The notes under the pieces: generated by a model
What the model saw: only the letters and a program-made list of their open reading frames with translations
Told to the model about the DNA's origin: nothing
The model's database searches: none
Origin: Candidatus Babeliales bacterium
GTDB taxonomy: Bacteria > Babelota > Babeliae > Babelales > RVW-14
Length of the DNA: 64,000 nt
Reading direction: 5' to 3'
NCBI GenBank assembly: GCA_019746485.1
Contig: JAIERW010000022.1
Location: 3,280-67,279, forward strand
Position numbers and translations under genes: made by a program
Shown here: positions 10,491-57,549 of the stretch, piece after piece
Numbering within the stretch: the stretch's first letter is position 1
How the letters are laid out: each line of letters starts with the position of its first letter

Positions 10491-10592
10491 ACGTACTCCT
10501 TTTTTTATTTGTTTCAAACAAATAAAAAAGGGGCCAGCTGGCCCCTTGGTGGTACTGTATGAAATTGCAATGTTGAATCGCAATAAAAAAAA

Positions 10593-11426: not shown

Positions 11427-11511
11427 AAGAGCCTCCTCTTTTTGGTTAAATAATATTTTTGTTATGTACAAGTTATTGTACCAAAAAGATGCAAATTTGT
11501 GAATAGTTTTT

Positions 11512-15623: not shown

Positions 15624-18299
15624 TTAATCGAGTTCGTCAGCATTAATGTGAATTTCTCCATCAATGAAGTGTGCGCCATGTTGCCCGTAGTATTCCTGCA
15701 TGCTTGTACTTGGAATTTGATATACGCTGGAGGTAGGGATCGATTGCAGTTCGGCCATTTCAGCCAATATTTCCTGATTTACGCGAGGGCGTTTTGCGCT
15801 TCTGCTTGTGGTGTTGTCATCAACCAATGAACGTGAAGTTGCAGGGCTTGATGAGCTTGAACTCGATGAGCTTGATGAACTTGAGCTTGAAGTTGCTGAG
15901 CCTGGAAAAGATGGGCTTGCCCCTCGATATTCTTCGCTACTCGGGATGAGCGTAAAGTTTGGATCGAATGGATTTATAAATTCGTCTTCAGGGGTATTGC
16001 TACCAACGCCTGAGCATCCTCGTTTGGCTGGTTGAGGCCTGCAAACGGTTCGCACAACTTTTAGTTCTCTATTTTCTTGAGTAAATTCAGTTTCTGCGCG
16101 ACATAAAGGGCACGTAGATGGCAGGTCGGCGTTGAGTTGTGTATTTGCTGCTTGAGTTAGGCACGTTGGGCAGAAATCGTGACTGCAGCCAAGACTTGCG
16201 CAATCTGAGCCTTCGTCAAAAGGTTCATAACAAATTGCGCAGTAATCTTCATCGGTTTTTTCAATAGTTGTTGCAGCTTGTGGGCCATGTTCTTGTACCT
16301 CGTTTAAAAGGCGCGCAAGAGCTTGGTGGCCGCGTCTGGTTGCTGTTGCTGCTGGCGTTTCGCCAGGAAAATGGCTGCCTGTGGTTGTTGCAGTAACGTT
16401 TGCACCAGCGGTAACAAGTTCTTGTACGCATGCAACATGGCCACTGTAAGCAGCGTCATGAAGTGGAGTGATGCGATCGTTGTCTGTCGCATTAACCTTT
16501 GCACCAGCGGTAATAAGAGCTTGTACGCATGCAAGATGGCCTCTCAAAGCAGCGAGATGAAGTGGAGTGTTGCTATCGTTGTCTGTCGCATTAACGTTTG
16601 CACCAAGTGCAATGAGTGCTTGTACGCATGCAACATGGCCACTGCAAGAAGCGTCATGAAGTGGAGTGTTGCCATCGTTGTTTGCTGCATCAACGTTTGC
16701 ACCAAGTGCAATAAGATCTTGTAAGCGTGGCAGATTGCCATCTCGGGCAGCAGTAATAAGTTGGTTGGCAAGAAATTGTTGGGTTCTGGCGTCAATGATA
16801 GGGCTAGCTTGCCTGAGTGCCTGTACACATTCTGTGCGGCCATTTTCTGCTGCGACATAAAGTGGGGTAAAGCCATTGCAAGCAAGATTAACATTTGCGT
16901 TAAGTTCAATAAGTCTGTTTACGCATGCGATACGGCCATGTTCTGCTGCGACATAAAGTGCTGTCCAGCCATCGTTGTTTGCTGCATCAACGTTTGCGCC
17001 AAGTGCAATAAGTGCTTGCAAGCGTGGCAGATTGCCATCTCGGGCAGCAGTAATAAGTTGGTTGGTGAGCAATTGTTGGGTTCTGGCATCAATGATAGCG
17101 CCTGCTTGCCTGAGTACTTGGACACATTCTGTGTGGCCATGTTCTAGTGCAATATAAAGTGGGGTAAAGTAATTGCAAGCGCGATTAACATCAGCGTTAG
17201 CAGCGATGAGTGCTTGTAAGTTTTCAAGGCGTCCGTGTGCAGCTGCCATGTACAGTGGAGTAGAGCCGTTGTTTCCGATCATGTTAGGGTCTAAGCCCAT
17301 GTCCAGAAGCGCTTGCAGGTGAGCTACATCGTTATCGTTTTCGAAAGCTGTAGCGTAAAGGAGATTTTGTGTTCTTCTGTCAGCCGTAGCGCCGGCGGCG
17401 ATAAGTGTTCGTGCGGCATCAGTACTGCCGTTTGCGGCTGCGGTATACAGCAAAGTATCGCCGTAACGGCTGCTCATGTTGGGACTTAAGCCCATGGCAA
17501 TGAGTACTTGCAGGCCAGCTACATTGTTGTTGCGAGCTGCATCGAAAAAGTGGCCTACTGTTCTTTCATCAACCGTAGCGCCAGCCAGCATAAGTGTTCG
17601 TGCGGCAGCAACGTTGCCCAGCGAGGCTGCGGCATACAGAGCAGAAGATCCGAATGTTTCAATTTGGGTAAGGGGAGCGCCAAGGCTTATAAGTCTTTCA
17701 ATCTCTGCCGTGCTATTATTTCTTGCAGCTAAAATGAGTTGTCTGGAGAGATCTCTTCGTGTTCTATCACTAACTATTCCTCCAAAATAGACGAGTCTTT
17801 GAGCGCATGCTGTGTGGCCATTTTCACGCGCCAGAGAGAGGGGGGTTTTGCCGAGTTGATTTTCAGGATTGATGAGTACGCCCTGCCTTGAGCAGAGATA
17901 GTTTACGAGTACAAGGTTGCCGAGTTCTGCGGCTTTGTGGAGAGTTGTGCTTCCAATGCCCGATCGAGCATTTATGTCGGCGCCGTATTCCAAAAGGACT
18001 TCTGCACAGCCTATTGAAGCGTTGTAAGCAGTCCAAAAAAGTGCAGGTGCATATTCATAGGTATTGCTTCGTGCGGGGTTTGGAACGATGTTGTTAAGAG
18101 CGTCTTCAGGCTGCAAGCCGATAAGTTGTTTTGCTTTCCACAACGTTAGGTTTCCTAGCGCTTGTCTGAGTTGTGCAGGATTGTCTTGGTTAATAGCGTC
18201 TCTAACGGGATTTCCTGTTGGAAATACGGTGGCAGCGGGCAGTGCGTTGGCAGTTAATGCCAAGGCAACAAAAAGTGAATAAGCAAGTTTTTTAAACAT
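15624..18299 (-). CDS. Secreted ankyrin-repeat protein (roughly 20 repeats by eye) fused to a C-terminal C3HC4 RING finger, followed by a poly-Ser tract and a KRPR motif. Putative E3 ubiquitin-ligase mimic
   Basis: Signal peptide MFKKLAYSLFVALALTANALPA. Many TPLH/GANV repeats. The RING is CAICYEPFDEGSDCASLGCSHDFCPTCLTQAANTQLNADLPSTCPLCR (C-x2-C-x13-C-x-H-x2-C-x2-C-x17-C-x2-C), at about 16095-16245. Confidence 0.9.
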   Translation of the reverse strand: MFKKLAYSLFVALALTANALPAATVFPTGNPVRDAINQDNPAQLRQALGNLTLWKAKQLIGLQPEDALNNIVPNPARSNTYEYAPALFWTAYNASIGCAEVLLEYGADINARSGIGSTTLHKAAELGNLVLVNYLCSRQGVLINPENQLGKTPLSLARENGHTACAQRLVYFGGIVSDRTRRDLSRQLILAARNNSTAEIERLISLGAPLTQIETFGSSALYAAASLGNVAAARTLMLAGATVDERTVGHFFDAARNNNVAGLQVLIAMGLSPNMSSRYGDTLLYTAAANGSTDAARTLIAAGATADRRTQNLLYATAFENDNDVAHLQALLDMGLDPNMIGNNGSTPLYMAAAHGRLENLQALIAANADVNRACNYFTPLYIALEHGHTECVQVLRQAGAIIDARTQQLLTNQLITAARDGNLPRLQALIALGANVDAANNDGWTALYVAAEHGRIACVNRLIELNANVNLACNGFTPLYVAAENGRTECVQALRQASPIIDARTQQFLANQLITAARDGNLPRLQDLIALGANVDAANNDGNTPLHDASCSGHVACVQALIALGANVNATDNDSNTPLHLAALRGHLACVQALITAGAKVNATDNDRITPLHDAAYSGHVACVQELVTAGANVTATTTGSHFPGETPAATATRRGHQALARLLNEVQEHGPQAATTIEKTDEDYCAICYEPFDEGSDCASLGCSHDFCPTCLTQAANTQLNADLPSTCPLCRAETEFTQENRELKVVRTVCRPQPAKRGCSGVGSNTPEDEFINPFDPNFTLIPSSEEYRGASPSFPGSATSSSSSSSSSSSSSSSPATSRSLVDDNTTSRSAKRPRVNQEILAEMAELQSIPTSSVYQIPSTSMQEYYGQHGAHFIDGEIHINADELD

Positions 18300-22644: not shown

Positions 22645-22662
22645 TTGCCCAAGGAAAATACC

Positions 22663-32789: not shown

Positions 32790-32817
32790 AAAAAGCTTAA
32801 CAACATCGGGAATAAAC

Positions 32818-33705: not shown

Positions 33706-33723
33706 AAAAATATAGGAGTAACT

Positions 33724-34653: not shown

Positions 34654-34682
34654 CCAAAACTAACTAACAAGGAAAAATATTT

Positions 34683-35561
34683 ATGATAAAAATTACAAAA
34701 GCGTTATTGTGTGTATTGTTGTTGAATGCTGGCCTCTGGGCGGCAAGTTCGTCAAGTTCATTGAGTTTGTCAGATATTTGGGAGGCAAGTTCGTCGAATT
34801 CATTGAGTTTGTCAGAGAGTGAAACAGAAAAGCTTACGGGCGCGATGAAAGAGTTGTCAATCTATGACCGTTACTCTGAAGCGGATAAGTATAGGATTTG
34901 GCAGCAAACGCCTCTTCATACTGCTGCACGCAAGGGTGATATACCTGCCATCATAACCTTAGTTGTTGAGCAAGGAGCATCAATACAGGCAGTTGATTTT
35001 CTGGGTCATACCCCGCTGCATTGTGCTGCTATATATCAGCACAAGCGGCCAGAAGTTTTTGATTTGTTACTTGAGCTGGGTGCCGACCGGTACGCTGTCG
35101 ACAAAGATGGTAAACTTGCTTGGCCAGAAAGGCAAATGTTATTGGCTGCAAAAGCTGGCGACCTTGCGGTGATGGTAAGGCTTTATGAGTACGATGCAAG
35201 CCTTATTGAAGCTCGCGATTTCAGTGTGGTACCAGGAGGCCCGAGTTCAGATGTTTTGCACTATCTTGTATTGAGCCGCAACTACGCGGCTTTGCTTTGG
35301 GCGTGCCAAGAGCTTAAGAAGCGGGGTAAATATTTTTCTTCTTGTGGGAGTCACTGGACCCCGTTGCAATTGGCTGCTGTTTACCAAGATCGGAAAGCAT
35401 GGGATATAGTGCGCCAGTTTGATAATGATTCAAGAACGTCTTGGAATATGGCACATATGGAGCCGTGGTGTGGTAAATATATAACTACGTACTATGCCGA
35501 TGGAGGCGCTGTGACGCGGCCGCGGTATCCGTCCAAGAGCGGTGGATGTTCAATTCAGTAA
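34683..35561 (+). CDS. Secreted ankyrin-repeat protein, type A, ending in the CaaX box CSIQ
   Basis: Signal peptide MIKITKALLCVLLLNAGLWA followed by ASSSSS. GKLAWPERQMLLAAKAGDLAVM. The C-terminus is ...SKSGGCSIQ* (35547-35558). Confidence 0.88.
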   Translation: MIKITKALLCVLLLNAGLWAASSSSSLSLSDIWEASSSNSLSLSESETEKLTGAMKELSIYDRYSEADKYRIWQQTPLHTAARKGDIPAIITLVVEQGASIQAVDFLGHTPLHCAAIYQHKRPEVFDLLLELGADRYAVDKDGKLAWPERQMLLAAKAGDLAVMVRLYEYDASLIEARDFSVVPGGPSSDVLHYLVLSRNYAALLWACQELKKRGKYFSSCGSHWTPLQLAAVYQDRKAWDIVRQFDNDSRTSWNMAHMEPWCGKYITTYYADGGAVTRPRYPSKSGGCSIQ

Positions 35562-35589
35562 AAAAAGCTTATCACGTTCAGGATTAACT

Positions 35590-36657
35590 ATGATTTTAAA
35601 AGTTTCAAAAATATTAGTAGGTGTTTTGTTGCTGGGCAACTCAGTGTGGGCGGCTTCAGGCTCATGGACAAGCAACCTTGATGAGTTTGAGCGTGCACGG
35701 GTAACTGACGAAAAAATGTTTATTGCCGTTGAGTTGGGCAACACAACAAAGCTCGCAGAGTTGCTGCTTTCGTCACAAGCTTCTGCCGGTGACGTGCGCA
35801 ATTACGATGGTGCAACGCTGCTGCACTGGGCGGTACGCCATGGCAAGCTTGATGTTATCGAGTGGTTGCGAAATACCTGTGCGCCAGGTTTTGTAAACGT
35901 GCAAGACAACAAAGGTCGTACAGCATTGCACTATGCAGCAGAAAAAGGGAATGTTGGTGTGGTTAAAGCCTTATGCGAAAACTTTGAGCGCATCAACGTT
36001 AACGCTCAAGATGAGACTGGTGCCACACCCTTGCACGATGCGGCTTTTTTTCGTTCGTCAGCGGCTTTTTGTTGGCTGGTTCAAAACAGAAAAGATATCG
36101 CTTTCAATGCGCAGGACCAAGCAGGTGCCACGCCTTTGCATTATGCGGTGCAAGCGGGACTCAAAGATGCCGTACTTTGTTTGTGTGAACACGGCGATCG
36201 TTTCGGGCTTGATGTTAATGCGCGTGATCTTACCGGTTCCACGCCATTGCACTATGCAACAATAGATCGCTTTAAAGATATTGCTGAGCAATGTGCCGTT
36301 GCTGGTGCACTGATCAAGCGTGGTGCTAACAAAAATGCGCTCAATGTGAAGCGTGAAATGGCACTTGCTCCCCATGCTCGCCTGTGCCTTGCGGCATTTC
36401 TGGGCAATGTTGAAGCAATGAGTGCTGCGCATGCGTTGGGGGCCAATCTTCAGGTACAAGATGCCAAGGGTTGCACGCCGTTGCATTATGCGGTAATGAG
36501 CAAAAATATCTACGCGATGGAATTTTTGTTAGGTCATCGTGTTCAGATTGTGGTAAAAAATAATGCCGGTGCAACGCCAATGAGTATTGCGCAACAGTTG
36601 CAAGATGAAGGTGCCGTGAAGATGCTGAATCTTTTTATCAGGGCGAGCGCGCGTTAA
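35590..36657 (+). CDS. Secreted ankyrin-repeat protein, type B (no CaaX box)
   Basis: Start at MILKVSKILVGVLLLGNSVWA. Collinear with 33724-34653, including FIAVELGNTTKLAELLLSSQASAGDVRNYDGATLLHWAV versus FLAVERGNTTALAKHLLSLQMSADDVRKPHGSTLLHWAV. Confidence 0.85.
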   Translation: MILKVSKILVGVLLLGNSVWAASGSWTSNLDEFERARVTDEKMFIAVELGNTTKLAELLLSSQASAGDVRNYDGATLLHWAVRHGKLDVIEWLRNTCAPGFVNVQDNKGRTALHYAAEKGNVGVVKALCENFERINVNAQDETGATPLHDAAFFRSSAAFCWLVQNRKDIAFNAQDQAGATPLHYAVQAGLKDAVLCLCEHGDRFGLDVNARDLTGSTPLHYATIDRFKDIAEQCAVAGALIKRGANKNALNVKREMALAPHARLCLAAFLGNVEAMSAAHALGANLQVQDAKGCTPLHYAVMSKNIYAMEFLLGHRVQIVVKNNAGATPMSIAQQLQDEGAVKMLNLFIRASAR

Positions 36658-36686
36658 ACAACATTAACTAACGAGGAAAAATAGTT

Positions 36687-37574
36687 ATGATAAAAATTAC
36701 AAAAGTCTTGTTGTGTGCTTTGTTGTTGAATGCTGGTCTTTGGGCTGTTGCGCCGAGCAGTTCGTCAAGAGAAGAAACAGAAGAGCTTGCTGCAGCAGTG
36801 GCTGGGTTGTCCCTTGATGATGCTTCTTGTAACTCTTTGAAGCAAACACTGCTTCATCGTGCGGCCGAACAGGGTAATATACAAGCTATTTACCAGTTGG
36901 TTGTTGAGCAAGGAGCTCCAATGAACGTGGGTGATTGGATGGGTCAGACCCCGCTGCATTATGCGGCTATACGTCAGTATAAGCGGCCAGAGGTGTTTGA
37001 CTTATTGATTGAGTTGGGTGCTGACCGGTACGCGTGCAACAATTGCGGTAAGCTTGCTTGGCCAGAAAGACAAATGCTTTCTGCTGCCGCGTCTGGCAAT
37101 CTTGAAGTTATACAAAGGTTGGTTGACGCAGGTGCTGAATTGGATGTGGATGATGTATTTCAAAATAGGAATCATGTTTTGCACTTTCTTGCGGCGAGTC
37201 GCAATCATGAAGCTTTGCGCTGGGCGTGCCAAGTTATGCGTGACAGCAAGAAAAAATCGGTTGATGTCGAGAATTATGACTGGGTTACGCCGCTGCACGT
37301 AGCTGCATATTATAAAGATAAAGTGGCAATGGAAATATTGATATCGTTTGGTGCCGACAAGTCCAAGTGTGCTCGTGGTGCCTCGTGGGAGAATTATTGG
37401 CACTATCTTGGCGATGAAGTTACGTTTGCCGATGGAGCCAAAGTTAAGGGGCTGCTGCCGCCGCCAACGGTTATTCTCAAGGGTGGTAAATTAAGTAATA
37501 TGACGGCTGATTACCACAATGGCCAAGTTGTACAGTATGGAAATGGTGGTGGTGGTGATTGCGCGCTGTTGTAA
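36687..37574 (+). CDS. Secreted ankyrin-repeat protein, type A, ending in the CaaX box CALL
   Basis: Signal peptide MIKITKVLLCALLLNAGLWA. The leader DNA is nearly identical to that of 34683. GKLAWPERQMLSAAASGNLEVI. The C-terminus is ...GGGGDCALL* (37560-37571). Confidence 0.88.
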   Translation: MIKITKVLLCALLLNAGLWAVAPSSSSREETEELAAAVAGLSLDDASCNSLKQTLLHRAAEQGNIQAIYQLVVEQGAPMNVGDWMGQTPLHYAAIRQYKRPEVFDLLIELGADRYACNNCGKLAWPERQMLSAAASGNLEVIQRLVDAGAELDVDDVFQNRNHVLHFLAASRNHEALRWACQVMRDSKKKSVDVENYDWVTPLHVAAYYKDKVAMEILISFGADKSKCARGASWENYWHYLGDEVTFADGAKVKGLLPPPTVILKGGKLSNMTADYHNGQVVQYGNGGGGDCALL

Positions 37575-37592
37575 ATTAAGATTGGAATAACT

Positions 37593-40223: not shown

Positions 40224-43200
40224 TTATTGAATTGCGCACCAAGTACTTGATGAAGCTGGTGCTGCTGGCGCGGGATCATCTTGAATTTGAGATTCTTGAA
40301 GTGCGCGTGGTGTGGCTAGAGGATCGAGTATCATGAATTCTGCCACCGTTTCCTGGAGTCTGCGTTTAGCTTCTAGTTTGATGGTATCATCGTTCATAAA
40401 CGCTTGTAATCTTTCAATACCATAAAACTCTCCGGTCACGTGCTTGCTTGTTGCAAGAATTGTTTTGATAAGTAGATCAGATACAGCAGATATATCCCTT
40501 GCTATTCCCGTCATCTGAATACGAAGCAGTGCACTTTGTAAGCCCTTTTCAAATGCTTCACCGTGCTGAGCAAGTTTTATAAAAAGCCTCAAGCTTTCCT
40601 GTTTGAGCGCAGCGTCTGCATTTGCGCTACTCGTAATATGACTTACTCCTGCAAATCGATGAGTCATGCAAAAATAAGCTGCCTCGGCTGCAGGCTTAAA
40701 TGCAACGCTGAGTCCGCTTTCTACAAGTTTGGTGAGAAGCTCTAATGGTTTTTTGTGGCTCATGCTATCCATAAAGAGATCGATAGTTGCTTGGTGAGCA
40801 TAGTTAGCGGCTTCTTCGATTGAGTGACCATTTTTAGTAAGGAGCCTGTACCATTCGAGTGCTTTAACGCGTTTGCTGATATCGGGCTCAGGTTGTGGAT
40901 TTCTCATTATGCGAGCCATTAAAGGTAATTGGGTAGCGGTGGCATAGCTGGCAGTAAGCTTCTTTAATTCATTAATTGCAGGTTCGTGGTGGTGTGCAAC
41001 AAGTTTCTCAAGAATTGCCCAATGCTGTTCACGTGTCCTATAATCTTTATGTGCGCAGTGTTTGAGTGCAGTATGAGTAAGATTTTCCAGCATTTGGTGA
41101 TCACCGGTGCTGTGTGCTATCACTACACATTGTTCTAGAATTTGCGCTCCTGCATAGGTTGAATGTGTTTGATTGCTCAATTTATCAACAAAGTCATGCA
41201 GCGTGTTCTTAAATTGTGGATTTTTTGTAAATCTTTGAACAGCAGTTAAATGTTCTACCAGAATATTTGCAAGACTTCTTTGATAAGCAAGATCTTCGGT
41301 TAGTTCAAATGATGTAATAAGTTGTGAAAGCAAAGAAATACTATCTGAGGTTGTGTCAGGGTTTTGCATGATCGTTCTGACAATTCTAAGCCTCGTACGC
41401 ACATCTAAAAGGTCACACATAAAAAGTAATCGGTAATGCGCATAGCGTGGTTCAAGCCCATAAAGATTGGAAAGCATGAACAATACTGGGTCAGCGTTGT
41501 CAAAAAGTTTGTTGTTCATATATTCAGCTAGATTGTTCTGATACGCTTCTTTTGCCTCTTGGCCTTCCATGCGCTCGGCATAAGCATGATTCAATGGATT
41601 AACAAAAATGGTAAAAAATGAACGAGCTTTTTTGAGCAAAATTGTTTGACCAATATTTTGATTATCAAGTTTTTTTAAGTCGAAATTTGGGGCGGCTAAT
41701 TCCCAACCACATTGTTGGCATACGCGTGCAAAATAGGTTGCATTAAAGTTTGCATCAAAAAAGACATCATTTAGTTCGCTCGAGGGTGTTGCTGACGAGC
41801 TTGCTGCTTGTGCTTCAAACAAGTTAAGTCCGAGCAAGTCATTGAGCATGATAATAATATTTTGCATCCATGGCATAATTTCATAGAGCTGATAGCCAGC
41901 ATCTGGCGCAACAAGAAGGAATTTGTTGCCGTTTACCTTTAACGTTTCCAACGTAATATCTTGGCTGTCACGCTTAAAGGTGACTGTTGAGCGTTTAGCA
42001 TTGTCTGGTATTGCGCCGCCTGGAAGTTTTATAAAACCACAGAATTTTTTCTTACCCTTTTTGTCGGTAATTTGTGTGGCATCCATTGTGTAGGAACTGC
42101 CTGGTAGTTTAATTTTGGCATAGGTAATGTACGGTTGGTTTTGAACAAGGTTGCTCCAGTCTTGGTGGACTTTAAGTCTGTTTGTATCATCTTCTGCATT
42201 GTTAGTTGCGTCTTGTGTTTTTGTTGCATAAAAATTATCGAGTTTTTCGGGCGCGTTAGGTGTGAGCAGTTTGTTGCCAAAGGTACGTGTTTCTTGGTCG
42301 TATGTTGCAATGTTACACAAATTGCGAATGGTTGTTTCTACGCAATCGGCAACCTTAACAACGTCAAACATAACGGTTGCATACTCAGGCAAGTAAGGGA
42401 TTGATTGGCCAAACTTTTGGCACATAAGCTCGGTATACACAACATCTGCCAGATTGGCATGGTTGGTGAGGTGATCAAAAATATCTTTGCCGTCAAGATG
42501 GTTTAAGCTTTCTGCCATGGCCTGTTGAATTTCTTTGTGGGCATTGTCTTCAAACATATCCGTACCATTAAGATTGTGCGCTTCTGGCGTAAGAAACTCT
42601 TGTGGCAACGATTGCACATAAGCAATCAAGTCATGTTTATCGTGTGCTTTTCTGTAAAGCCAGGTCAGCAAAATATGTTGGGTAGCATAGTGTTCATAAG
42701 CCCCTCGATAATTTTTTTCGCTTGGCTCAAAAACACTCGGGATGAGCGATGAGCTTGCTGGGTCTGCCGGTGCTGGCTTGCATTCGGCCAGCGAAGCAAT
42801 AATCAAATCAACAAATTTTGCAACATGCACGTTCTTTTCGATTGCTTCCAGTTTTGAAAGTGCTTGCTTAATTTTCGGTGCATCAATTTTGACTTGTAAA
42901 ACAAAAATTGCTTCATCAAGATTGAATAGTTGTCTTGCTTGTGCTTCTTTTTTTCTTGCTGCGCGTGATTTTAAGTAGTTTTGATGGCGAGCGTCACGCG
43001 CTTCTGGGCTATTGTCATGGTGTTCATGTGTCAAAATACCATTTGTGGTACGTTGTTTTTTGGTTGTAAGTTCGGCTTTTTGTCTGCCAAAGCGTTCATG
43101 TTTTCTCGAATGTTGCGGTTGTTTGTCGTTTCTGGTGCAAAGTCTCTGTGCTGTATTTTCTGGCGCGGTTTCCAAGCGTCCGCGTTTTCTTGAAGGCTGT

Positions 43201-46900: not shown

Positions 46901-47993
46901 CTACATTGGTTGGTGCGTACGAGCTGGACGATGAACTTGAGCTGGATGAGCTAGATGACGAGCTGGATGATGATGTGACGGCCGTTACCGGTAAACATTC
47001 GTTACAGGCTCTTACCAAGAGCTGAGCAAAGGTTTCAAGTTTTTGAAAGATGGTGTCTTTAAATTTTTGTGCCAACTCGTTGCGGCGCGCGTACTGGCCC
47101 AGCTCGGTGATGAGCAGAGGAACGTTAACTTCTTGTTGTTGGCGTTGTCGTTTTTCACTGCGTGAAGATGGTGCTGACGAGGTGTCGGGAGTCATTTCGT
47201 TACGACCACGTTTAGGCCGAGCGTCATCTGACACTGCTAAAGCAGCAGCTGACGATGAGCTGGAACTTGAACTCGAGCTAGCGCTTGTGGCAGAAGCAGC
47301 GCCAGAGCTTGTGGCAGACGTGGTGCTTGTTGCTGTGGTGGCGCTAGAGCTTGTAGTAGATGCGGCGCCAGTGCTTATGCCAGAAATTGGTTGGTTTTGG
47401 TGTTTGCGGAGAGCATCGATAATGTCATCAATTTTAGCGTCTTTTTTAAATGATTGCTTGGTAACATTTTGTGCTCGTGTTTTGAGGGTACCAAGTTTTT
47501 GTTGTGTGCAGGTTGTGCTCAATTCTTTTAGTTCCACATATTCTTGGTAATCAGTTGTCAGGTTGGCAAAGTGTGGCGATGCTTGTTGAAAGTCAGCATC
47601 ATTCACGAGTGCTCGTACGATGGCGTTAGCACGCGTTCGCTCATCAGCATTTTTGTTCAACTCAAGTGCGTTGAGCATGCTGCCCACGGTGCCGATTGAA
47701 AAAAAGCGACACGGAATATCTTTTTGTGCTGGCGCAAAGCCACCCGGCGTTGCATTAAAAAGCTTTCTGATCAGTTGAACCGTTGCATCGTCAGGGTTAC
47801 CAAAGTGGTACAACTTTTCGATGTAGCGCATTTCAATGCCAAGCGCACCGCAGGCGGGCGACAAGGTAGCTCGATGCTCGGGCTTAAAAATATTCCACGT
47901 GCCTTTAATATCTTTGACATTGCCAGGTTGGGCAATAGTTGCCAAGCCAAGAGCAAATGTGACAACGGTTGAAAGTAAACGTAAAAACTTCAT
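43914..47993 (-). CDS. Giant secreted effector-like protein, paralog 2 of 3. It has two poly-Ser tracts, KRGR/KRQR motifs, a Cys/His domain and an extended HEAT-like repeat region
   Basis: 1359 aa. Signal peptide MKFLRLLSTVVTFALGLATIAQPG. Motifs ADCVETTIRNLCN and RHAYAER. Repeated units of the type D..VR..A..LF..L....Y.PAF.AATQAA. Confidence 0.88.
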   Translation of the reverse strand: MKFLRLLSTVVTFALGLATIAQPGNVKDIKGTWNIFKPEHRATLSPACGALGIEMRYIEKLYHFGNPDDATVQLIRKLFNATPGGFAPAQKDIPCRFFSIGTVGSMLNALELNKNADERTRANAIVRALVNDADFQQASPHFANLTTDYQEYVELKELSTTCTQQKLGTLKTRAQNVTKQSFKKDAKIDDIIDALRKHQNQPISGISTGAASTTSSSATTATSTTSATSSGAASATSASSSSSSSSSSAAALAVSDDARPKRGRNEMTPDTSSAPSSRSEKRQRQQQEVNVPLLITELGQYARRNELAQKFKDTIFQKLETFAQLLVRACNECLPVTAVTSSSSSSSSSSSSSSSSSSYAPTNVDDFVYRPYTAQHALLAFAYKKANAKNDFVPFFKKLDQQFFIDDITFDQTWQNDVYAEDAHVKIHADFITNFAGKSGQEIFATCAGNAFTDVVLTEVRRQLYSQTIPVLPENREAYFETFRVADCVETTIRNLCNVVTYNKETATFGNHVEGLALAPELAAFYSTERNRLESKTDALEVRQDWGNIVQNLPHITYGRAKLPTNNDFYFAAPNDTCGFIKLAGIRASEAHTTDITLSPLDHNGNAIAGGTPHTFEQITVNGSSYVLVGDDYHLFEVMPSIKNIVIMMNQFFNLDLFGAAPGQPSSSSAPAASLEADFFKPDFNSQSFEKLCAKLNWGVEHNVLAQLDNEHIPELRLTLTQGRVAPFTLCIMPGRHAYAERPLNSIPLVAHQKALQQYLCSQIKTKAGACETLLFDLYKSNEVAWGFSGLYRYFTRNLFSGETKSAVINSIIENTRTSLALTSLASQLIKTMPVAADFQAQRSIATHLHMNLDFVKANKNNKQLKEAIAHLAQQTSEQTNYLLQIGVFEKLMTTLIELNMKQELEVCMQLATNNVSNVDRWTREPACKILKALIKGNYQPAFDAATQAAATNATHTDPRVREQAHELFTALFEQGHQKAADAATTCVANNIDHDDEVMRNSMINLVAALLSPPTAREVIEHSAKHYMNHPKGYFRFLALDGFAHLVNKKHQSAFKNALEAAKDNIIYQDCQRDEKTQSFHSPSFAIGNATTKVFSALFAQNFEPAFEAAHKAIKENLCNEKRVIRAWALKLLKKLIQTDYSSKNESVNIYAYELASELAKSRHSVYVNHALVLFQALVKTNYEKAYQDATITATANIQNIDREIQFSVQELFTSLFEKNHQPAFEAATQAATDNISHENTVIQGSGLSLFKNLIKHNYKAAFAPATQAVQTIMQAPPKYSENTLLDLCVELVEKDYEPAIASATTVAEQSDRSFFLSRALKKHKQQTCDDLSQKNSTTSSLSSSSSATSSSTPVTDDE

Positions 47994-48005
47994 GATAACC
48001 TCTTT

Positions 48006-51000
48006 TTAAATCTTGTTAATGCGTATTTTATCAATAATATCCTGTACCAATTCTTTAATTATGGGGTTTGCGTGGTGTGCAAATTTGTTGGCAGCTTCGC
48101 GTGCTGCGGTGAAAGCTACTCTTTCTGCAACGAGTAAGTTGAATATCATAAGTCCATGGCGAATGGTGTTTGGGTTAGTACTGCAAGTAGCTTTTTTTGC
48201 TGCCTGTTCTGCCTGCTCAAACCCAAGGTCTTTCATAATAAATAATGCAAAAATTTCATAAGCAAAGTTTTGAATTTCTGGGTTGGCATGGTGTAAGGTA
48301 TTGTTGGCAGCAAAAAGGATAGTGTTGATGTTTGATAATTGTTTGATAAGCCGTTCTTCTAGCAGTTGATAAACGAGGGACCTAATTTCTGAGTATTCAT
48401 AATTCATATTAAGTATGATAAATTGGTCTGCCAATTTGTAGGCTGGTTCATAATCGTTTTGCATAAGCGCTGAGATAAGGAAAAATTTTTTTCTTATCAT
48501 ACTTCTGGTTGATTGACTCATATTATTTTTTACCAGCTCATGTGCTACATAATACGTTTCTTGATTCTCGCATTTTTTGACAAGTATAAGGGCCGCTTGC
48601 AGAGCAGTATCTATTTTTTCAGGACCGGCTTCTTGTACAAATTTGTAGGCTAAATCAAAACCTTCTGTTTTTTGACAGAGACATTCTAAAAGAATGGTAG
48701 CTTGCATTTGAGTTTGACAGTCGCTATGAGTTAGACTTTCTAGAGCTGCGTGCAAGGCTGGCTCATGTGCTTTGCCTTGTTTAACAAGGCTTTTAAACAG
48801 GTTGAGTGCTTCTAATCTGAGGTCTTCATCATCGCTTGTGCTATAGTGAGAGGCGAGTTGAATAATTCTTTGTAGCTCTTCTTGCATGTTCAGAATTATT
48901 ACTATTTTTGAGAAGCTTTGAAGAAGAATCAATTGATCTTCTGGATCATTTATTTCGTCTAAAGCTTCAAGCGCTGATTTTTGCAGTGCCTTTTTGAGCA
49001 CATTATTATCTTGGTGACTGACGACAAAATTGATGTTTTGGGAGAGGTAGCTAGTAATGCCGTTGTCGTTTTCATCAGTTTGAGTGATGCGCAATGATGT
49101 CATTAATTGACTCGCAAACGAAATAAAATTCGGGTTTATTTCACGAGGTTTGCTTGTCCTAATGATACGGCGTAAAATTGCGAATTTTGTATCATCATCA
49201 AAAAGATTGTGCATAAAAAAGTTGTTGTGTGTATAAAAACTATGTTCTTTGGGGTAAATTCCAAATTTAATGTTGTAATTTTTATACAAATCCAAGAAAA
49301 GCAGTAAGCGTGGGCTTAATGCATCTTCACGTGATGTTAGGCTTGAACAGAGCTTTTGTTGGTAGGAGGTTGGTTTGTATTCAGTATTTAAGCGTTCGGC
49401 ACACGCGTGTATTCCTGGTCTGATATAAATTTCAAAAAACGCTTTGCCTTCTTTGCCTTCATCTTCTTGGCTGAGAGTTTTTTCTAGTTCTAGTGTTTGT
49501 TCTTTGTCTTCTTCGTCTAGCTCATAATCATCATTCAGAACCCATCCGCATGCGGTGCATAGGTCTTTAAAGCGTGGTGAAGTAAATGTTGAGCTAAAAA
49601 AATCATTTGCTATGGAACTTGGTGAAGGTATGCCAAGAAGGTGGTTAGTAATAATTGTAATATTCTTGAGTGATGCTTTAATTTCAAAAAGCTCGTAGTG
49701 GTCGTCTTGGATAAGAATGTATGAATGGTTGTTGATCGTAAGAGTGTTAAACGTATGTGCCGCTTGCTTAGTTACTCTCTGTGTTGCTGAATCGTGTGGA
49801 ATAATTTTGGCAGTCCCGTGTTGAGCATCGCTAGGGACTGTGATATTGTTAAGCTTGATAAAGCCATCTAAGGTATCTGGGCATTCAAAATAAATTGTTG
49901 TGTTGTTAGCAGGTGTTGCTAATTGATAGGTTATATTAGGCAAGTTTTGAATGAGATCGCTCCATTCCTGATGAACTTGTTGCATTCCTGATGTATCTTC
50001 TTTTCTGTTAAGTAGATTGTTTTGAAAAAATGTGTTGAGTTCTGGTGTAAGAGTAAGGCCGTTGGCGTTGCCAGCGGTTCGTGTAGTTTTGTTGTTGGTG
50101 GCAATTCTGCACAGGTTGTTTATGGTATTTTCTACGCAGTTACTAAATTTTATTCCCTTGAAGCAAATTTTTTGATGGCGTGTTAAGCACGGAATAGTTT
50201 TACCGTACAATTGACGTCTTATTTCAGTAAAAACAATATCGGTAAAGTCTGCTGTTGCAAGACTTGCAAAAGCTTCCTCTTCTGATTTTCCGGCTAGGCA
50301 AAGCTCAAGGCTTGCATGAATGTTGGTGTGCTCATCGTCAGCGTACAAATCGCTGTACCAAGCTTGTTCAGGTCGCGAGCCTGAAACAAAGAAGCTTTCA
50401 TTGAGTTGATTAAAGTAATCAGCAAAATTTTCTTTAGAATCTGTTTTTTGATAAATCCAGGCAAGAAGGGCGTGCTGGGCCGTGTAAGGCCGGTACACTA
50501 AGCTATCGTGTAACCTGTAACTTGGTTCTGGTAGTAGTGAAGAAGAAGATAGAGCTGAAAGCCTAATTATATTCGCCGTGTATTGATAGTGGCACTCAGC
50601 ACAAGCGTCAATAAGTAACTGTGTAAAGTCTAGAATGTGTTTATAGATAGGCATTTGTTTGGTGTTAAATTTTTTTGCCAATTGTTCCAACTCTGCGTGC
50701 GGTTTTAAACCTTCAATAATTTGAGGGACTGTGTACGTTTCTTTTTGGCGCTGTCTTTTTGGTACTTTTTCTTTGTGAGGACTTCTTGGTCGTTGTCTTT
50801 TTCTGGAGTAGTCAGTTTCATCATTTTCAGTATCTGAGAAAAAGCTTTGAGAAGACGATGACGAAGATCCGCTGCTTGAAGAAGCACTTGTGTGTTGTGT
50901 GCTGATGTGACTATTTTCTTTTTCAAGAGTTTCTATAATTTTTGCCAACGGAGCTTTTCTTAAGGTTGGGTTATTCAAAAATTCAAGGGCTTTTTGCTTA

Positions 51001-51509
51001 AAGAGACTAAATTTATCATTTGATCGATCCAGCTCTTTCTTGAGCCTGAGGAACCTAACAAAGTCTTTGGCATTTTGAGTAAAAGCTGGATTGTTGAGGT
51101 TTTTTTGAAAGTCTTGATCATTTACCAGAACGTTTATAAGTGGATAAAAAGCCAAGGATAGAGAATTTTTATACGTTTCTAGAACATTCAAAAGCTTGCC
51201 AACAGTTGCTCGAGAAAAATACCGAGCAGGAGAGCTAACTTGCGTTGGTGCAAAGCTGCCAGGCACCACGTGAAACAGTTGCTTAAGTAATTTTATCGTT
51301 GCATGCTCTGGGTTACCAAAGTGATAGAGTTTTTCCAGGTACTTCATTTCAATACCAAGAGCGCCACAGGCTAGCGAGAGCGTGAGGCGGTGTTCAGGCT
51401 TTAAAACGTTGTCGGTACCTTTGAGGTACTGAACATCGTTGGGCTGGGCTGTTGTGCTCAAGCCCAGGGCAAACATAAGAATAGTTGAAAGTAAACGTAA
51501 AAACTTCAT
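48006..51509 (-). CDS. Giant secreted effector-like protein, paralog 1 of 3 (first gene of the operon)
   Basis: 1167 aa. Signal peptide MKFLRLLSTILMFALGLSTTAQP. SSSSGSSSSSS...SRKRQRPRSPHKEKVPKRQRQK. Motifs SNCVENTINNLCR and IHACAER. GGAGG RBS. Confidence 0.88.
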   Translation of the reverse strand: MKFLRLLSTILMFALGLSTTAQPNDVQYLKGTDNVLKPEHRLTLSLACGALGIEMKYLEKLYHFGNPEHATIKLLKQLFHVVPGSFAPTQVSSPARYFSRATVGKLLNVLETYKNSLSLAFYPLINVLVNDQDFQKNLNNPAFTQNAKDFVRFLRLKKELDRSNDKFSLFKQKALEFLNNPTLRKAPLAKIIETLEKENSHISTQHTSASSSSGSSSSSSQSFFSDTENDETDYSRKRQRPRSPHKEKVPKRQRQKETYTVPQIIEGLKPHAELEQLAKKFNTKQMPIYKHILDFTQLLIDACAECHYQYTANIIRLSALSSSSLLPEPSYRLHDSLVYRPYTAQHALLAWIYQKTDSKENFADYFNQLNESFFVSGSRPEQAWYSDLYADDEHTNIHASLELCLAGKSEEEAFASLATADFTDIVFTEIRRQLYGKTIPCLTRHQKICFKGIKFSNCVENTINNLCRIATNNKTTRTAGNANGLTLTPELNTFFQNNLLNRKEDTSGMQQVHQEWSDLIQNLPNITYQLATPANNTTIYFECPDTLDGFIKLNNITVPSDAQHGTAKIIPHDSATQRVTKQAAHTFNTLTINNHSYILIQDDHYELFEIKASLKNITIITNHLLGIPSPSSIANDFFSSTFTSPRFKDLCTACGWVLNDDYELDEEDKEQTLELEKTLSQEDEGKEGKAFFEIYIRPGIHACAERLNTEYKPTSYQQKLCSSLTSREDALSPRLLLFLDLYKNYNIKFGIYPKEHSFYTHNNFFMHNLFDDDTKFAILRRIIRTSKPREINPNFISFASQLMTSLRITQTDENDNGITSYLSQNINFVVSHQDNNVLKKALQKSALEALDEINDPEDQLILLQSFSKIVIILNMQEELQRIIQLASHYSTSDDEDLRLEALNLFKSLVKQGKAHEPALHAALESLTHSDCQTQMQATILLECLCQKTEGFDLAYKFVQEAGPEKIDTALQAALILVKKCENQETYYVAHELVKNNMSQSTRSMIRKKFFLISALMQNDYEPAYKLADQFIILNMNYEYSEIRSLVYQLLEERLIKQLSNINTILFAANNTLHHANPEIQNFAYEIFALFIMKDLGFEQAEQAAKKATCSTNPNTIRHGLMIFNLLVAERVAFTAAREAANKFAHHANPIIKELVQDIIDKIRINKI

Positions 51510-52656: not shown

Positions 52657-53024
52657 TACAGTTTCAATCCCTGTTCATAAACATTTCTTCCTGCCAAAAA
52701 ATGCCAGTGAAGATGGAAAACACTTTGCCCAGATGCGCGGCCATTGTTGCTGACAATATTAAATGACGGTGGTGTTGCAAGCGTTGTGCTCAGTTCTGTG
52801 ACCATGTTCACCATGGCAAGAGCAAAGTCGTTGTCTGTTGGCGTTAATGCACTCATATCAGCAATGTGTTTTTTTGGAATAATTAAATAATGAATTGGTG
52901 CTTTGGGCGTGATATCTTGGACAACGACTACACATTCATTTTCAGTGATTTTTTTTGCGGGAAGAGTTCCCTGAATGATTTTACAAAAAATACATGAAGC
53001 GCTTAAATTTTCTAACACTTCCAT
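52656..53024 (-). CDS. HIT-family protein (Hint-like histidine triad nucleotide-binding protein)
   Basis: CIFCKIIQG...[14 protein letters not shown]...HLHWHFLAG. Confidence 0.9.
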
Positions 53025-53044
53025 CCTTTTTCCTTAGAGCTCTG

Positions 53045-53212
53045 GGGCGCGTCCTTCGAGACGTCTTGCTTCGCCAAGGCTTCGCCAGACTCCTCAGGAT
53101 GAGCGGGCCTATATATCTCATTTAAGAGAGGTGCCTGTCCTCCAAAGCCACCTGGGCGTAGGAGGAGCCTGCCAGCTGAAGCTACAAGCGCTTTAGCGCG
53201 CAGAGCGTAAGC
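53045..53212 (-). repeat. Full composite copy of the modular repeat (T, P and S modules) directly 3' of tRNA-Leu
   Basis: The minus strand reads GCTTACGCTCTGCGCGCTAAAGCGCTTGTAGCTTCAGCTGGCAGGC (T module), CCTACGCCCAGGTGGCTTTGGAGGACAGGCA (P module) and CCGCTCATCCTGAGGA...GTCTCGAAGG (S module). Confidence 0.75.
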
Positions 53213-53299
53213 TGGTGCCGAAGGTCGGACTCGAACCGACACGGTGTCGCCACCGCGGGATTTTGAGTCCCGTGCGTCTACCAATTTCGCCACTTCGGC
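53213..53299 (-). tRNA. tRNA-Leu (anticodon CAA), CCA encoded
   Basis: GCCGAAGTGGCGAAATTGGTAGACGCACGGGACTCAAAATCCCG + long variable arm + GGTTCGAGTCCGACCTTCGGCACCA. I folded the cloverleaf by hand. Confidence 0.92.
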
Positions 53300-53375: not shown

Positions 53376-54584
53376 TTAAAGTGTGCTGGCCAAATTGAAG
53401 ATTGGTAAATAAATGCTTAGCATCAAAATAGTAATGATTATGCCTACCAGGATAAGCAAAAGTGGGTTTGCAACGACTGTTAAAATATGCAGCGAGCGTG
53501 CTAGTTGTGTTTGCAAGGCAATCAGCATTTTGTCGAGCATGAGTGCCAGCTTGCCTGTTTGTTCGCCGGTTGAAACAAACGCAATAACATCATCAGGAAA
53601 GTAGCGCGTGCCACTTTGTTTAAGCGCTTTTTCAAACGATTTGCCTTGCGTGATAGCGGTGCTTATCAACTCCAGCTGATGCTTAAATTCTCCGTGCTGT
53701 GCGGCTTGTTGAGCAACGGTTAGTGCCTGGCTGAGTGTGGTGCCGCTTTTGAGCAGCATAGAAATCATTTGAAACGAGTAGATCAAGTTTGAGTAGAGCC
53801 ATATTTTACGCACAAACGGTGTGCGTGCTACCAACCAGTCGGTTGCTGTTTTAACGCGTTCAAGTTTGAGCAGTAGGCGCGTGAGCGCTATAAAGCCGGG
53901 AATGCTTAGCCACACCAGCAAGCCTGCCGGTGCGCGCAAAAACGAGCTCAGCGCAATAATGTGCCGTGTGAGTGGTGGCAGCTCTTTGCCGGTGGACGTA
54001 AACAGTTCTTGAAACTGCGGGATAATAAAAATCATGATACAGCCAACAATGAGCAGGGCAAACGTGAGCGTGATGCCGGGCAGCAGGGCTGCTTGCTTGA
54101 GCTTTTTGGTTAGCTGGATGCGCTGCTGCAGGTAGGCAACAATGGTATAAAACGAGTCGGAAAGTTTACCCGCGGCTTGGCCTGCCTTGACGGCGTTGAT
54201 AATAAACGGCGAAAATGCCCCTGTTTGCTCGAGAGCGTGCGAGAAGCTATTGCCGCAGGTTATTTCTTTTATCAGGTGCTGGGCGTGACCCTTGAGCGTT
54301 TGGTTGCTGGTTTGTTTGGCGACCAGTTCAAGCGCGTGTGCAAGATCTATGCCGCTTTCAAGCAGGAGTGCCAATGTTGCAAAAAAGCGTTCTAGTTCTT
54401 GTGGGGCGAGTTTTGTGCGGCTCAAATGCAAAAACGAGAAGAGTGGTTTCTTTTTGGCATACGACAAAAGGGCTATCTGTCGGTCGAGTAGTTCTTTTTT
54501 GAGCGCTTCGGGTGTAACCGCCTCGTGGTAGCCGTGTTGGTTGTTGCCGTGTGCGTCAATGCCTTTCCAAAAAAACGTTGGCAT
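53376..54584 (-). CDS. Type II secretion / type IV pilus inner-membrane platform protein (GspF/PilC family)
   Basis: 402 aa with two repeated T2SS-F-like halves and 3 TM segments. The N-terminus FFWKGIDAHGNNQHGYHEAVTPEALKKELLDRQIALL is typical of PilC/GspF. Confidence 0.85.
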   Translation of the reverse strand: MPTFFWKGIDAHGNNQHGYHEAVTPEALKKELLDRQIALLSYAKKKPLFSFLHLSRTKLAPQELERFFATLALLLESGIDLAHALELVAKQTSNQTLKGHAQHLIKEITCGNSFSHALEQTGAFSPFIINAVKAGQAAGKLSDSFYTIVAYLQQRIQLTKKLKQAALLPGITLTFALLIVGCIMIFIIPQFQELFTSTGKELPPLTRHIIALSSFLRAPAGLLVWLSIPGFIALTRLLLKLERVKTATDWLVARTPFVRKIWLYSNLIYSFQMISMLLKSGTTLSQALTVAQQAAQHGEFKHQLELISTAITQGKSFEKALKQSGTRYFPDDVIAFVSTGEQTGKLALMLDKMLIALQTQLARSLHILTVVANPLLLILVGIIITILMLSIYLPIFNLASTL

Positions 54585-55021: not shown

Positions 55022-55098
55022 GCGCCCATAGCTCAATTGGATAGAGTATCAGACTACGAATCTGACGGTTAGAGGTTCGAGTCCTCTTGGGCGCACCA
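55022..55098 (+). tRNA. tRNA-Arg (anticodon ACG), CCA encoded
   Basis: GCGCCCA-TA-GCTC-AATTGGATA-GAGT-A-TCAGA-CTACGAA-TCTGA-CGGTT-AGAGG-TTCGAGT-CCTCT-TGGGCGC-A-CCA. Confidence 0.93.
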
Positions 55099-55156
55099 TC
55101 CTACGCTCGGCGTGCTTAGGCACTTGTAGCTTTGGACGGCAGGCTTTTTGTTTTTT
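55099..55156 (+). repeat. tRNA-trailer element (T module) followed by a T-run
   Basis: TCCTACGCTCGGCGTGCTTAGGCACTTGTAGCTTTGGACGGCAGGC, then TTTTTGTTTTTT. Confidence 0.75.
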
Positions 55157-55161
55157 GAGGA

Positions 55162-55253
55162 GGAGAGATGGCTGAGTGGTCGAAAGCGCTTGCCTGCTAA
55201 GCAAGTATCTCGGGAAACCGGGATCGAGGGTTCGAATCCCTCTCTCTCCGCCA
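55162..55253 (+). tRNA. tRNA-Ser (anticodon GCT), CCA encoded
   Basis: GGAGAGATGGCTGAGTGGTCGAAAGCG, anticodon arm CTTGC-CTGCTAA-GCAAG, long variable arm, GAGGGTTCGAATCCCTC, TCTCTCC-G-CCA. Confidence 0.93.
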
Positions 55254-55286
55254 GTCTGCGCCCTACGTGGCTTCGACTGGCAGGCC
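55254..55286 (+). repeat. Shortened tRNA-trailer element (T module lacking the inner hairpin)
   Basis: GTCTGCGCCCTACGTGGCTTCGACTGGCAGGCC. Confidence 0.6.
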
Positions 55287-55342
55287 ATCTTCTTAAATGA
55301 AATACAACAGGTTTTAACTGCAAATAGAAGAAGAGTTAATTC

Positions 55343-55463
55343 CCGTTCGCCCTGATCTCTCGACTTGGCTCGAGACTAAAGGCCCTCCCGCCTGTCCTGA
55401 GGAATCCGGCGTAGCTTTAGCGAAGCGGGATGTCTCGAAGGGTCGAAGGGTCTAAACGAACGG
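55343..55463 (+). repeat. S-module repeat copy bounded by 7-nt inverted repeats (MITE-like)
   Basis: CCGTTCG (55343) ... CGAACGG (55457-55463). Inside are the hairpin TCTCGA-cttggc-TCGAGA and the conserved CCGCCTGTCCTGAGGAA...GTCTCGAAGGGTCGAAGG. Confidence 0.55.
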
Positions 55464-55519
55464 TTCCTGAAATCGAAAATACTTTGAAAACAAATTCTAA
55501 AAAATCACGTTCTTAACGT

Positions 55520-55611
55520 GGAGAGATGGCTGAGTGGTTGAAAGCAACGGTCTTGAAAACCGTCATACCGGGAAACCGGTATCGGGAGTTCGAATCTCCC
55601 TCTCTCCACCA
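55520..55611 (+). tRNA. tRNA-Ser (anticodon TGA), CCA encoded
   Basis: GGAGAGATGGCTGAGTGGTTGAAAGCA, anticodon arm ACGGT-CTTGAAA-ACCGT, long variable arm, GGGAGTTCGAATCTCCC, TCTCTCC-A-CCA. Confidence 0.93.
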
Positions 55612-56454: not shown

Positions 56455-57549
56455 TTATTCACCATAAACAAGCATGCTGAACGCCGGTGCAAGTTGATAC
56501 TTACGTCCTTTGCGCGAAGGATCGCTGATGACCAAGAAGCCTTTTTCTACCCAGGTGCGGCACAGAGCGCTTACCGTGCGTGGCTTAAAGCCAAAAAGCG
56601 CGCAGATTTCTTGTGAGGTAATTTCCTCAGATTTTTTGAACAGTTCAAGTACTTTGCGTTGCTTTGGGTTGAGCTTGCGCAATAACCTTGATTGATCTGG
56701 CTCTTGCTGCTGTGCAGCTTTAGCTGCCTGTTGTTTTACCTTTTCGCACGCTTGCGCCATGCCATCACAGAAATATTTCAGCCAATCAGTTATGTCTGCT
56801 TCCTCGCGACCTTCGTAGTAATTGTGCGAGGGCCCAGTGCTTATGGCATCGTAGTAAGCGGATAAATTTTTAGCATAATACTCTTCTAGGCAGTACACGC
56901 CTTTTAAATCGTAACCCCCAAGATGCAAAATAAATGTTGTAAGTAAGCGTGCTGTACGGCCGTTTCCGTCGTAGTAAGGATGGATTGTTGCAAATTGATA
57001 GTGTGCAATGCCGGCAACCAACGGGCATGGTAGATCGTTATTTTCTTGAATCCACAAAACCAAAGCTTTCATGAGTTCTGGCACATCAGATGCTTGTGGT
57101 GGTAAGTAAACAATGCGTCCGGTGCTGCCATCTTTAATTACATTTTGGCCGGTGCGGTAGGGTGTTGCTTGAAGTGTGGTGAGCCCATTACCCATAACCA
57201 GTGCGTGGAGCTTTTTTATTCGTTGTTCGGTTATTGGCTTTTCTTGTGCAACGTACTGTTCGAGCGCTTGTAGTGCCTGGTAATAGCCTTTTACCTCGCC
57301 CTCATCACGAGGTCGAAGTGTTGCCTTTTTTCTCAAAATAACGTCGGCAACCTCGTCTTGAGTTAGCCGGTTTCCTTCAATTTGTGTTGAATAGTGAACG
57401 CTGGAAAGGCGTGCGCTTTCTCGTAACTTTGCCAACACGGTTATGGTTATTGGCAGATCGTTAATTGCTTGCTTTGCCGCTTCAATGCGCATGAGCGTCT
57501 TGGCCATTGAGGGCGTTAGGGAAAAGAAGGGGGCAAATTTTTTAATCAT
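56455..57549 (-). CDS. Fic-family protein (AMPylase type) with an intramolecular inhibitory motif and a C-terminal winged-helix domain
   Basis: The Fic motif HPYYDGNGRTARLL fits HxFx(D/E)GNGRxxR. The N-terminal STQIEG fits the (S/T)xxxE(G/N) inhibitory helix. The C-terminus is QRKVLELF...ITSQEICALFGFKPRTVSALCRTWVEKGFL. Confidence 0.9.
   Translation of the reverse strand: MIKKFAPFFSLTPSMAKTLMRIEAAKQAINDLPITITVLAKLRESARLSSVHYSTQIEGNRLTQDEVADVILRKKATLRPRDEGEVKGYYQALQALEQYVAQEKPITEQRIKKLHALVMGNGLTTLQATPYRTGQNVIKDGSTGRIVYLPPQASDVPELMKALVLWIQENNDLPCPLVAGIAHYQFATIHPYYDGNGRTARLLTTFILHLGGYDLKGVYCLEEYYAKNLSAYYDAISTGPSHNYYEGREEADITDWLKYFCDGMAQACEKVKQQAAKAAQQQEPDQSRLLRKLNPKQRKVLELFKKSEEITSQEICALFGFKPRTVSALCRTWVEKGFLVISDPSRKGRKYQLAPAFSMLVYGE

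Follow-up and report, generated by a model that had tools for sequence, protein, structure and literature searches.

Four proteins encoded in a single stretch of a Candidatus Babeliales genome, three giant paralogues (G1, G2 and G3) and an ankyrin-RING (Ank-RING) protein (AR), each contain a run of serines that is followed by acidic residues and a basic K-R-x-R motif. The stretch of DNA, here called the window, comprises 64,000 nt of contig JAIERW010000022.1 from the metagenome-assembled genome (MAG) GCA_019746485.1 (phylum Dependentiae/TM6). We propose, with a probability of about 0.55, that these elements are disordered polyserine spacers that expose predicted classical importin-α nuclear localization signals (NLSs) on candidate effectors of the host nucleus. 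The spacer would be an inter-domain loop in the three giants, where the stretch is internal (aa ~210-285), and a C-terminal tail in AR. The four genes are listed below; P-numbers denote homologues and L-numbers related loci.

40224..43901, minus strand: G1 (K2X40_04265), 1225 aa; identical to P0005 from Candidatus Babeliales
43914..47993, minus strand: G2, 1359 aa; paralogue of G1 and G3; syntenic orthologue at L001:13593-16926
48006..51509, minus strand: G3 (K2X40_04275), 1167 aa; paralogue of G1 and G2; identical to P0003
15624..18299, minus strand: AR, 891 aa; ankyrin repeats, RING finger (aa 686-734) and C-terminal tail; syntenic orthologue P0006

G1, G2 and G3 are encoded by three tandem genes and are 29-36% identical to each other; the AR gene lies separately on the same strand of the window. 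K2X40_04265 and K2X40_04275, two hypothetical proteins from a Candidatus Babeliales MAG, are identical to G1 and G3, respectively. In G1, a Sec-like signal peptide and an N domain precede a disordered linker (linker 1), which is followed by a central domain and by helical repeats at the C terminus; signal peptide, N domain, central domain and helical repeats also make up the other giants. All four proteins (4/4) start with a Sec-like signal peptide, as judged by eye. The AR gene region (16001-18000) has a GC content of 49%, compared to ~42% for the window, which could be due to the Ala/Gly-rich repeats or to a foreign origin.

The strings and coordinates quoted in the original prediction were all verified in the sequence. 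The elements of the four stretches are:

43218..43253, minus strand: G1 Ser run SSSSSSPSSSSS (aa 217-228), mixed Ser codons
43176..43196, minus strand: G1 class-2 NLS candidate PSRKRGR (aa 236-242), matching the Kosugi consensus, with TLADD directly before it
47250..47279, minus strand: G2 first Ser run, 10 Ser (aa 239-248), in linker 1; only Ser-rich in the sister orthologue
47202..47213, minus strand: G2 KRGR (aa 261-264), VSDDARP before it; KRGRN block 100% kept in the orthologue
47142..47162, minus strand: G2 class-2 NLS candidate RSEKRQR (aa 278-284); APSSRSEKRQR block 100% kept in the orthologue
46920..46973, minus strand: G2 second Ser run, 18 Ser (aa 341-358), in linker 2, without a basic motif after it
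50850..50888, minus strand: G3 Ser-rich run SASSSSGSSSSSS (aa 208-220)
50748..50801, minus strand: G3 bipartite NLS candidate KRQRPRSPHKEKVPKRQR (aa 237-254), after the acidic patch SDTENDETD; kept in P0002
15846..15890, minus strand: AR Ser run, 15 Ser (aa 804-818)
15783..15803, minus strand: AR class-2 NLS candidate RSAKRPR (aa 833-839), SLVDD before it, in a segment inserted relative to P0006

The pattern of Ser run, acidic residues and KRxR is real and exceeds chance. In a scan of a rough window proteome of 51 open reading frames (ORFs; 20,171 aa), the expression S{6,}.{5,25}KR.R from the original prediction matched G1, G2, G3 and AR and none of the other 47 ORFs. An excess over the expectation from composition was seen as well: KR.R is expected ~2.2 times in the window proteome and was observed seven times. 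Six of the seven lie inside the stretches of the four proteins, and the seventh is spurious because its ORF lies across genes for tRNA-Arg and tRNA-Ser. The class-2 NLS pattern was found three times (0.38 expected), every time in these stretches, and for AR alone the probability of a KR.R within 40 aa of the Ser run is ~0.004. Since G1, G2 and G3 are paralogues that carry the stretch at one homologous position, these are about two independent occurrences, not four. The same proteome scan revealed no such NLS-type motifs in the small ankyrin proteins of the window, and in 274,302 aa of homologous proteins from other organisms the strict expression matched only the window's own proteins. The Ser runs use a mixture of all six Ser codons, which indicates maintenance at the level of the protein rather than recent trinucleotide slippage; a pure slippage or DNA microsatellite origin is rejected.

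The basic sites fit the known classes of importin-α ligands. The major-site motif of importin-α is K(K/R)x(K/R), class 2 of Kosugi is (P/R)xxKR(^DE)(K/R), with RAAKRPRTT as a tested example, and the bipartite consensus is KRx10-12K(K/R)x(K/R). The core K-(K/R)-x-(K/R) is present in all four proteins (KRGR in G1, KRGR and KRQR in G2, KRQR twice in G3 and KRPR in AR). PSRKRGR of G1, RSEKRQR of G2 and RSAKRPR of AR are exact class-2 matches, and the AR motif closely resembles the tested example. In G3, the two clusters are spaced as KRQR-PRSPHKEKVP-KRQR (KRQR-x10-KRQR), which satisfies the bipartite rule. Every linker examined (10/10; the four window proteins, two orthologues from a sister MAG, and P0273, P0126, P0272 and P0004) matches at least one strict Kosugi class (1, 2 or bipartite). 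Thus, the earlier suggestion of a nuclear targeting signal holds insofar as the basic sites are good classical NLS candidates by core and by class 2 or bipartite consensus; the single portable cassette of which they were said to be part does not hold, as discussed below. An AT-hook was also considered and rejected, as the G-R-P core is absent from all linkers checked.

An AlphaFold2 model of G3 (aa 1-800, based on an alignment of 88 sequences) had a mean predicted local distance difference test (pLDDT) score of 87.8 and a predicted template modelling (pTM) score of 0.87. In this model, aa 207-260 have no secondary structure and the pLDDT drops below 50 at aa 219-239, which places the Ser run, the acidic patch and the bipartite motif (aa 208-254) in a disordered loop. 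The loop is flanked by helices 188-206 and 261-280 and joins two folded parts. According to the model, the NLS candidate of G3 would thus be exposed in a disordered segment. A second unstructured loop (aa 306-342) corresponds to the 18-Ser run of G2.

The sister MAG GCA_019749895.1 carries a syntenic giant locus. The G3 orthologue P0002 is 74.5% identical and has kept DYSRKRQR and KRQRQKE completely. The G2 orthologue is 64% identical overall and only 78 of the 181 columns of the linker are identical, but KRGRN and APSSRSEKRQR are perfectly kept, whereas the first Ser run is eroded to a Ser-rich stretch. Preservation of the basic blocks while Ser run and linker drift points to purifying selection that would act on the basic blocks rather than on the Ser homopolymer.

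The picture for AR is different in detail. Its syntenic orthologue P0006 (L003:10001-12286) has two Ser runs, the second of which is followed by RTSAKHSRNG near the C terminus, and the AR segment PATSRSLVDDNTTSRSAKRPRVNQE (15783-15860) is an insertion relative to P0006. A third Ank-RING protein from Babeliales, P0018, ends with a Ser run, NDEDEPSSE and RRTSQRRHRE, which is the same order but lacks the Lys core. The C-terminal part of AR alone retrieved no homologues when used as query; they were found with the full-length query. The tail of AR is evolving fast.

Inspection of linker 1 in related giants revealed that different types of NLS occupy this one structural position:

P0126: linker 1 KRKRSEDESCLPQTKRQK, bipartite
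P0272: linker 1 KRKRTEIEDDPRDTKKRKK, bipartite
P0273 (same MAG, K2X40_05360): linker 1 KAKKRKRID, class 1; no preceding Ser run, Ser runs in loops 2 and 3
P0004: linker 1 PDQKRQK, class 2
P0001: no motif in linker 1
P0127 (same MAG): no motif in linker 1

The source MAG encodes at least five giant paralogues, including P0127 and P0273 on other contigs. Strict-class motifs of differing type are present in seven of the nine nearest family members, and in a neighbour-joining tree the NLS-bearing members fall into both subclades of the nearest clade. For the 30 members whose two domains could both be aligned, linker 1 holds 9.9 K[KR].[KR] motifs per 1000 aa and the sequence outside it 1.4, a 7-fold difference, and 14 of the 30 have at least one such motif in linker 1, compared to 7.5 expected from shuffled linkers. 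The layout of a Ser run followed by KRxR is, within the giant family, confined to the K2X40 and K2W90 lineage. Acidic C-terminal ends recur in these proteins (TPVTDDE*, LHDDE*, DNDSDDNE*, NADELD* and NLDELD*, in G2 at 43914-43940, AR at 15624-15650, P0002, P0273 and P0006); they are not a proper KDEL signal.

How would such proteins reach the host nucleus? The source organism is an intracellular-type member of the Babeliales, and the content of the window is typical of this group: many small ankyrin proteins with signal peptides, three ~900-aa β-propeller paralogues, a Fic protein and a gene for T2SS F, a component of the type II secretion system (T2SS). Ankyrin, WD40 and RING proteins with signal peptides are abundant in it.

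53376..54584, minus strand: T2SS F (platform protein of type II secretion / type IV pili); background to a possible export route, outside the motif

A Sec system and T2SS components have been reported for relatives, and the T2SS is reported to belong to the core of TM6 genomes. In Chromulinavorax, a cultured relative, 44% of the coding sequences and 78% of the ankyrin proteins have signal peptides and are considered to be effectors that the bacterium secretes; late in infection, the host nucleus breaks down. In a first step, the four proteins would be exported by Sec and then, probably, by a type II system; in a second, they would arrive in the host cytosol. Proteins smaller than about 60 kDa can diffuse into nuclei. 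The proteins described here (~100-150 kDa) are too large for diffusion through the pore, so active import by importin-α would be needed. From motif fit, exposure and conservation we infer, as a third step, that importin-α would bind the K-R-x-R core, or both clusters in G3, and carry the protein into the host nucleus, with the Ser run serving as a flexible polyserine spacer.

Several observations weigh against nuclear targeting. Short basic motifs in disordered regions rich in Ser, Arg and Lys are easily over-interpreted. Linker 1 of the close giant relatives P0001 and P0127 contains no NLS-type motif, and the NLS candidate of AR is not conserved, since P0006 has KHSR, elsewhere in the tail, instead of KRPR. 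The AlphaFold2 model of the AR tail is uninformative (pLDDT 38.9, three-sequence alignment). An N-terminal Sec signal delivers a protein to the periplasm only; a further step across the outer membrane, and across any vacuole membrane, would be needed. Furthermore, the three ~900-aa WD40 proteins of the window (738-8967) have neither an NLS-like motif nor a Ser run; they are large yet NLS-free, so size alone is no predictor.

The alternative that survives best, which we nevertheless consider rather unlikely, is that the stretches are plain flexible linkers, low-complexity polyserine and charged spacers in which K-R-x-R has no role in targeting. Polyserine linkers do separate domains in many secreted bacterial enzymes, the Ser runs of this lineage also occur in loops without a basic motif (the second run of G2 and loops 2 and 3 of P0273 and P0127), and the AR orthologue has Ser runs but no KRPR. 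A mere spacer does not account for the restriction of the window's KR.R motifs to these stretches, nor for basic blocks that are perfectly conserved across species while the Ser run and the remaining linker drift. In addition, NLSs of other classes occupy this position in relatives, spaced by 10-12 residues as bipartite signals are, and the motif is more common than in shuffled linkers.

A cleavage site for a kexin- or furin-like protease of dibasic specificity, from host or bacterium, that frees the N domain or trims the tail of AR is improbable. The basic sites do lie in an exposed disordered loop, each contains a KR dipeptide, and RPKR of G2 fits R-x-K/R-R. On the other hand, the furin consensus R.[KR]R was found in only one of ten related linkers and is gone in the G2 orthologue, so the furin reading was rejected, and paired clusters at bipartite spacing would be left unaccounted for. 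A Pro next to the scissile positions, as in KRPR, is poor for kexin-type cleavage and typical of an NLS.

The original prediction regarded the stretch as a portable cassette shared by two protein families; on this reading, a homologous module of ~40 aa would have moved between the giant and the Ank-RING family by recombination. This did not withstand comparison of the stretches, which share no homology beyond Ser-codon words and composition, and we consider it very improbable. Both families do show one order of Ser run, acidic residues and K-R-x-R, some short segments are similar, for example TSRSAKRPRVNQEI and SSRSEKRQRQQQEV, and the segment of AR is inserted relative to P0006. However, blastn among the four stretches returned only Ser-codon words of 7-16 nt, and the best match in a masked blastp of AR against the giants covered 14 aa with E = 0.35. 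In the giants, the stretch is at one homologous position and was therefore inherited there. Moreover, the elements are found independently of each other: Ser runs without a basic motif in the second run of G2 and in loops 2 and 3 of P0273 and P0127, and an NLS-type motif without a preceding Ser run in linker 1 of P0273. Ser runs of at least six residues occur almost only in proteins of this genome lineage; they track the lineage and not the NLS motif. In several small ankyrin proteins, the predicted signal peptide is immediately followed by a short Ser run (SSSS or SSSSS; LWAASSSSSLSLS at 34683 is an example), which suggests that the secreted proteins of this genome generally tend to contain Ser spacers. 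The layout is best described as a lineage habit of polyserine spacers together with motifs of NLS type that either emerged or were retained in exposed loops. Our best reading of its occurrence in two unrelated families is convergence, or a combination of independent elements, rather than a transferred module; poly-Ser and basic motif are best interpreted separately, the former as a linker habit of this genome and the latter as a targeting motif.

Least probable of all is a secretion or chaperone-recognition signal for bacterial export, for although all four have the appearance of secreted proteins and the gene for a T2SS component lies close by, the position of the stretch differs (internal in the giants, C-terminal in AR), many other signal-peptide proteins of the window and most members of the giant family lack it, and the T2SS is not known to use a linear signal of this type.

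The candidates for nuclear import have counterparts in several known systems. They resemble classical importin-α NLSs, of class 2 in G1, G2 and AR and bipartite in G3, where the motif is predicted to lie in a disordered, exposed region; the difference is that they reside in bacterial proteins that also bear an N-terminal Sec signal. With nucleomodulins such as CaeA and Cbu1314 of Coxiella, App of Neisseria and VirD2 of Agrobacterium, they would share secretion, eukaryote-like domains (ankyrin, RING) and the K-K/R-x-K/R motif. Most of the known nucleomodulins are delivered by type III, IV or V secretion, whereas here Sec and T2SS are the export systems in evidence and nuclear localization is a prediction. 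The proteins would add a new case to an established class, that of bacterial effectors with an NLS and a polyserine linker.

Polyserine linkers (PSLs) are known from secreted multidomain enzymes of Saccharophagus degradans and Cellvibrio japonicus. The runs described here are likewise homopolymeric, lie between folded parts of signal-peptide proteins and are encoded by mixed codons, and thereby answer to the description of a PSL; they differ in that they belong to candidate effectors of an intracellular parasite, not to carbohydrases, and are followed by basic motifs.

The large T antigen of simian virus 40 (SV40) has a CcN motif in which a site for casein kinase 2 (CK2), S111/S112-DDE, lies upstream of PKKKRKV, and phosphorylation by CK2 speeds import 50-fold. 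Ser, Asp/Glu and then the NLS follow each other in the same order and within about 5-15 residues in the proteins described here; the long homopolymeric Ser runs contrast with the two Ser of the T antigen. Sites of the type [ST]xx[DE], a short pattern that is common, are present within ~25 residues upstream of the NLS as TLAD in G1, SDTE and TEND in G3 and SLVD in AR. G2 has only SDDA, which is not a canonical CK2 site, before the first motif, and SRSE before the second. It is tempting to speculate that the upstream Ser/Thr and Asp/Glu residues are CK2-type sites that tune import, but control by Ser phosphorylation is suggested by the resemblance to the T antigen only and is speculative.

The Dependentiae are parasites of protists with a wide distribution, most of them uncultured, and next to nothing is known about the means by which they manipulate the host. 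In the literature collection that was searched, no paper links Dependentiae with nuclear targeting; the single paper in which both terms occur is unrelated. The analysis yields a short list of candidate host-nucleus effectors, three giants and a RING ligase, with motifs defined to the residue. A bolder view, which we offer only tentatively and hold to be possible rather than probable, is that one subclade of the giants was retargeted to the host nucleus via varied NLSs in a disordered loop and, together with the AR ligase, would constitute the first nucleus-directed effectors of Dependentiae, in the absence of a type III or IV system.

The unannotated giant family itself may be the more valuable lead, with its at least 516 clusters and a confident model that has no structural match. 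A profile search, run with a shortened alignment, retrieved 516 representative clusters (50% identity) at E < 1e-3 and 295 at E < 1e-10; the named members are Babeliales. Across 88 members, Cys458 and Tyr528 (G3 numbering) are invariant, and His701 and several other residues are at least 90% conserved. The conserved Cys and His residues hint at a Cys/His enzyme. The giants have no match in Pfam, NCBIfam or PDB sequences; hits to SR-25 and RTP1_C1 in Pfam/NCBIfam were below threshold and driven by composition, and were rejected. Despite the confidence of the G3 model, Foldseek gave no significant match in PDB and BFVD, and weak matches to an E2-like fold (probability <0.1) were disregarded. The family may represent a new enzyme fold. 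Of two scans of genome contigs, the first detected nothing and the second only one distant family member, at 9170-12304 of L002 (CAYNSS010000002.1), which lacks the Ser-run and KRxR layout and comes from a MAG that bears the label 'uncultured Pseudomonadota'. Either the family is not limited to the Dependentiae, or this MAG was wrongly labelled or binned.

The remainder of the window holds further features. The three tandem ~900-aa paralogues (738-8967, minus strand) have a signal-peptide-like N terminus and WD40/β-propeller C-terminal halves, and the array is also present in the sister MAG (L003). Six small ankyrin proteins with signal peptides (274-371 aa) form a tandem array at 32767-38417 (plus strand) and also at 9153-12468 (minus strand). 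A tRNA cluster (Arg-acg, Ser-gct, Ser-tga) and a tRNA-Leu are located at 55022-55611 and 53213-53299; the mechanically called ORFs 55069-55323 and 53012-53293 overlie these tRNA genes and are spurious. A transposase-like gene of the PD-(D/E)XK family is found at 22645-23586 (plus strand), and the Fic-domain protein, which has a C-terminal helix-turn-helix, is encoded at 56455-57549 (minus strand).

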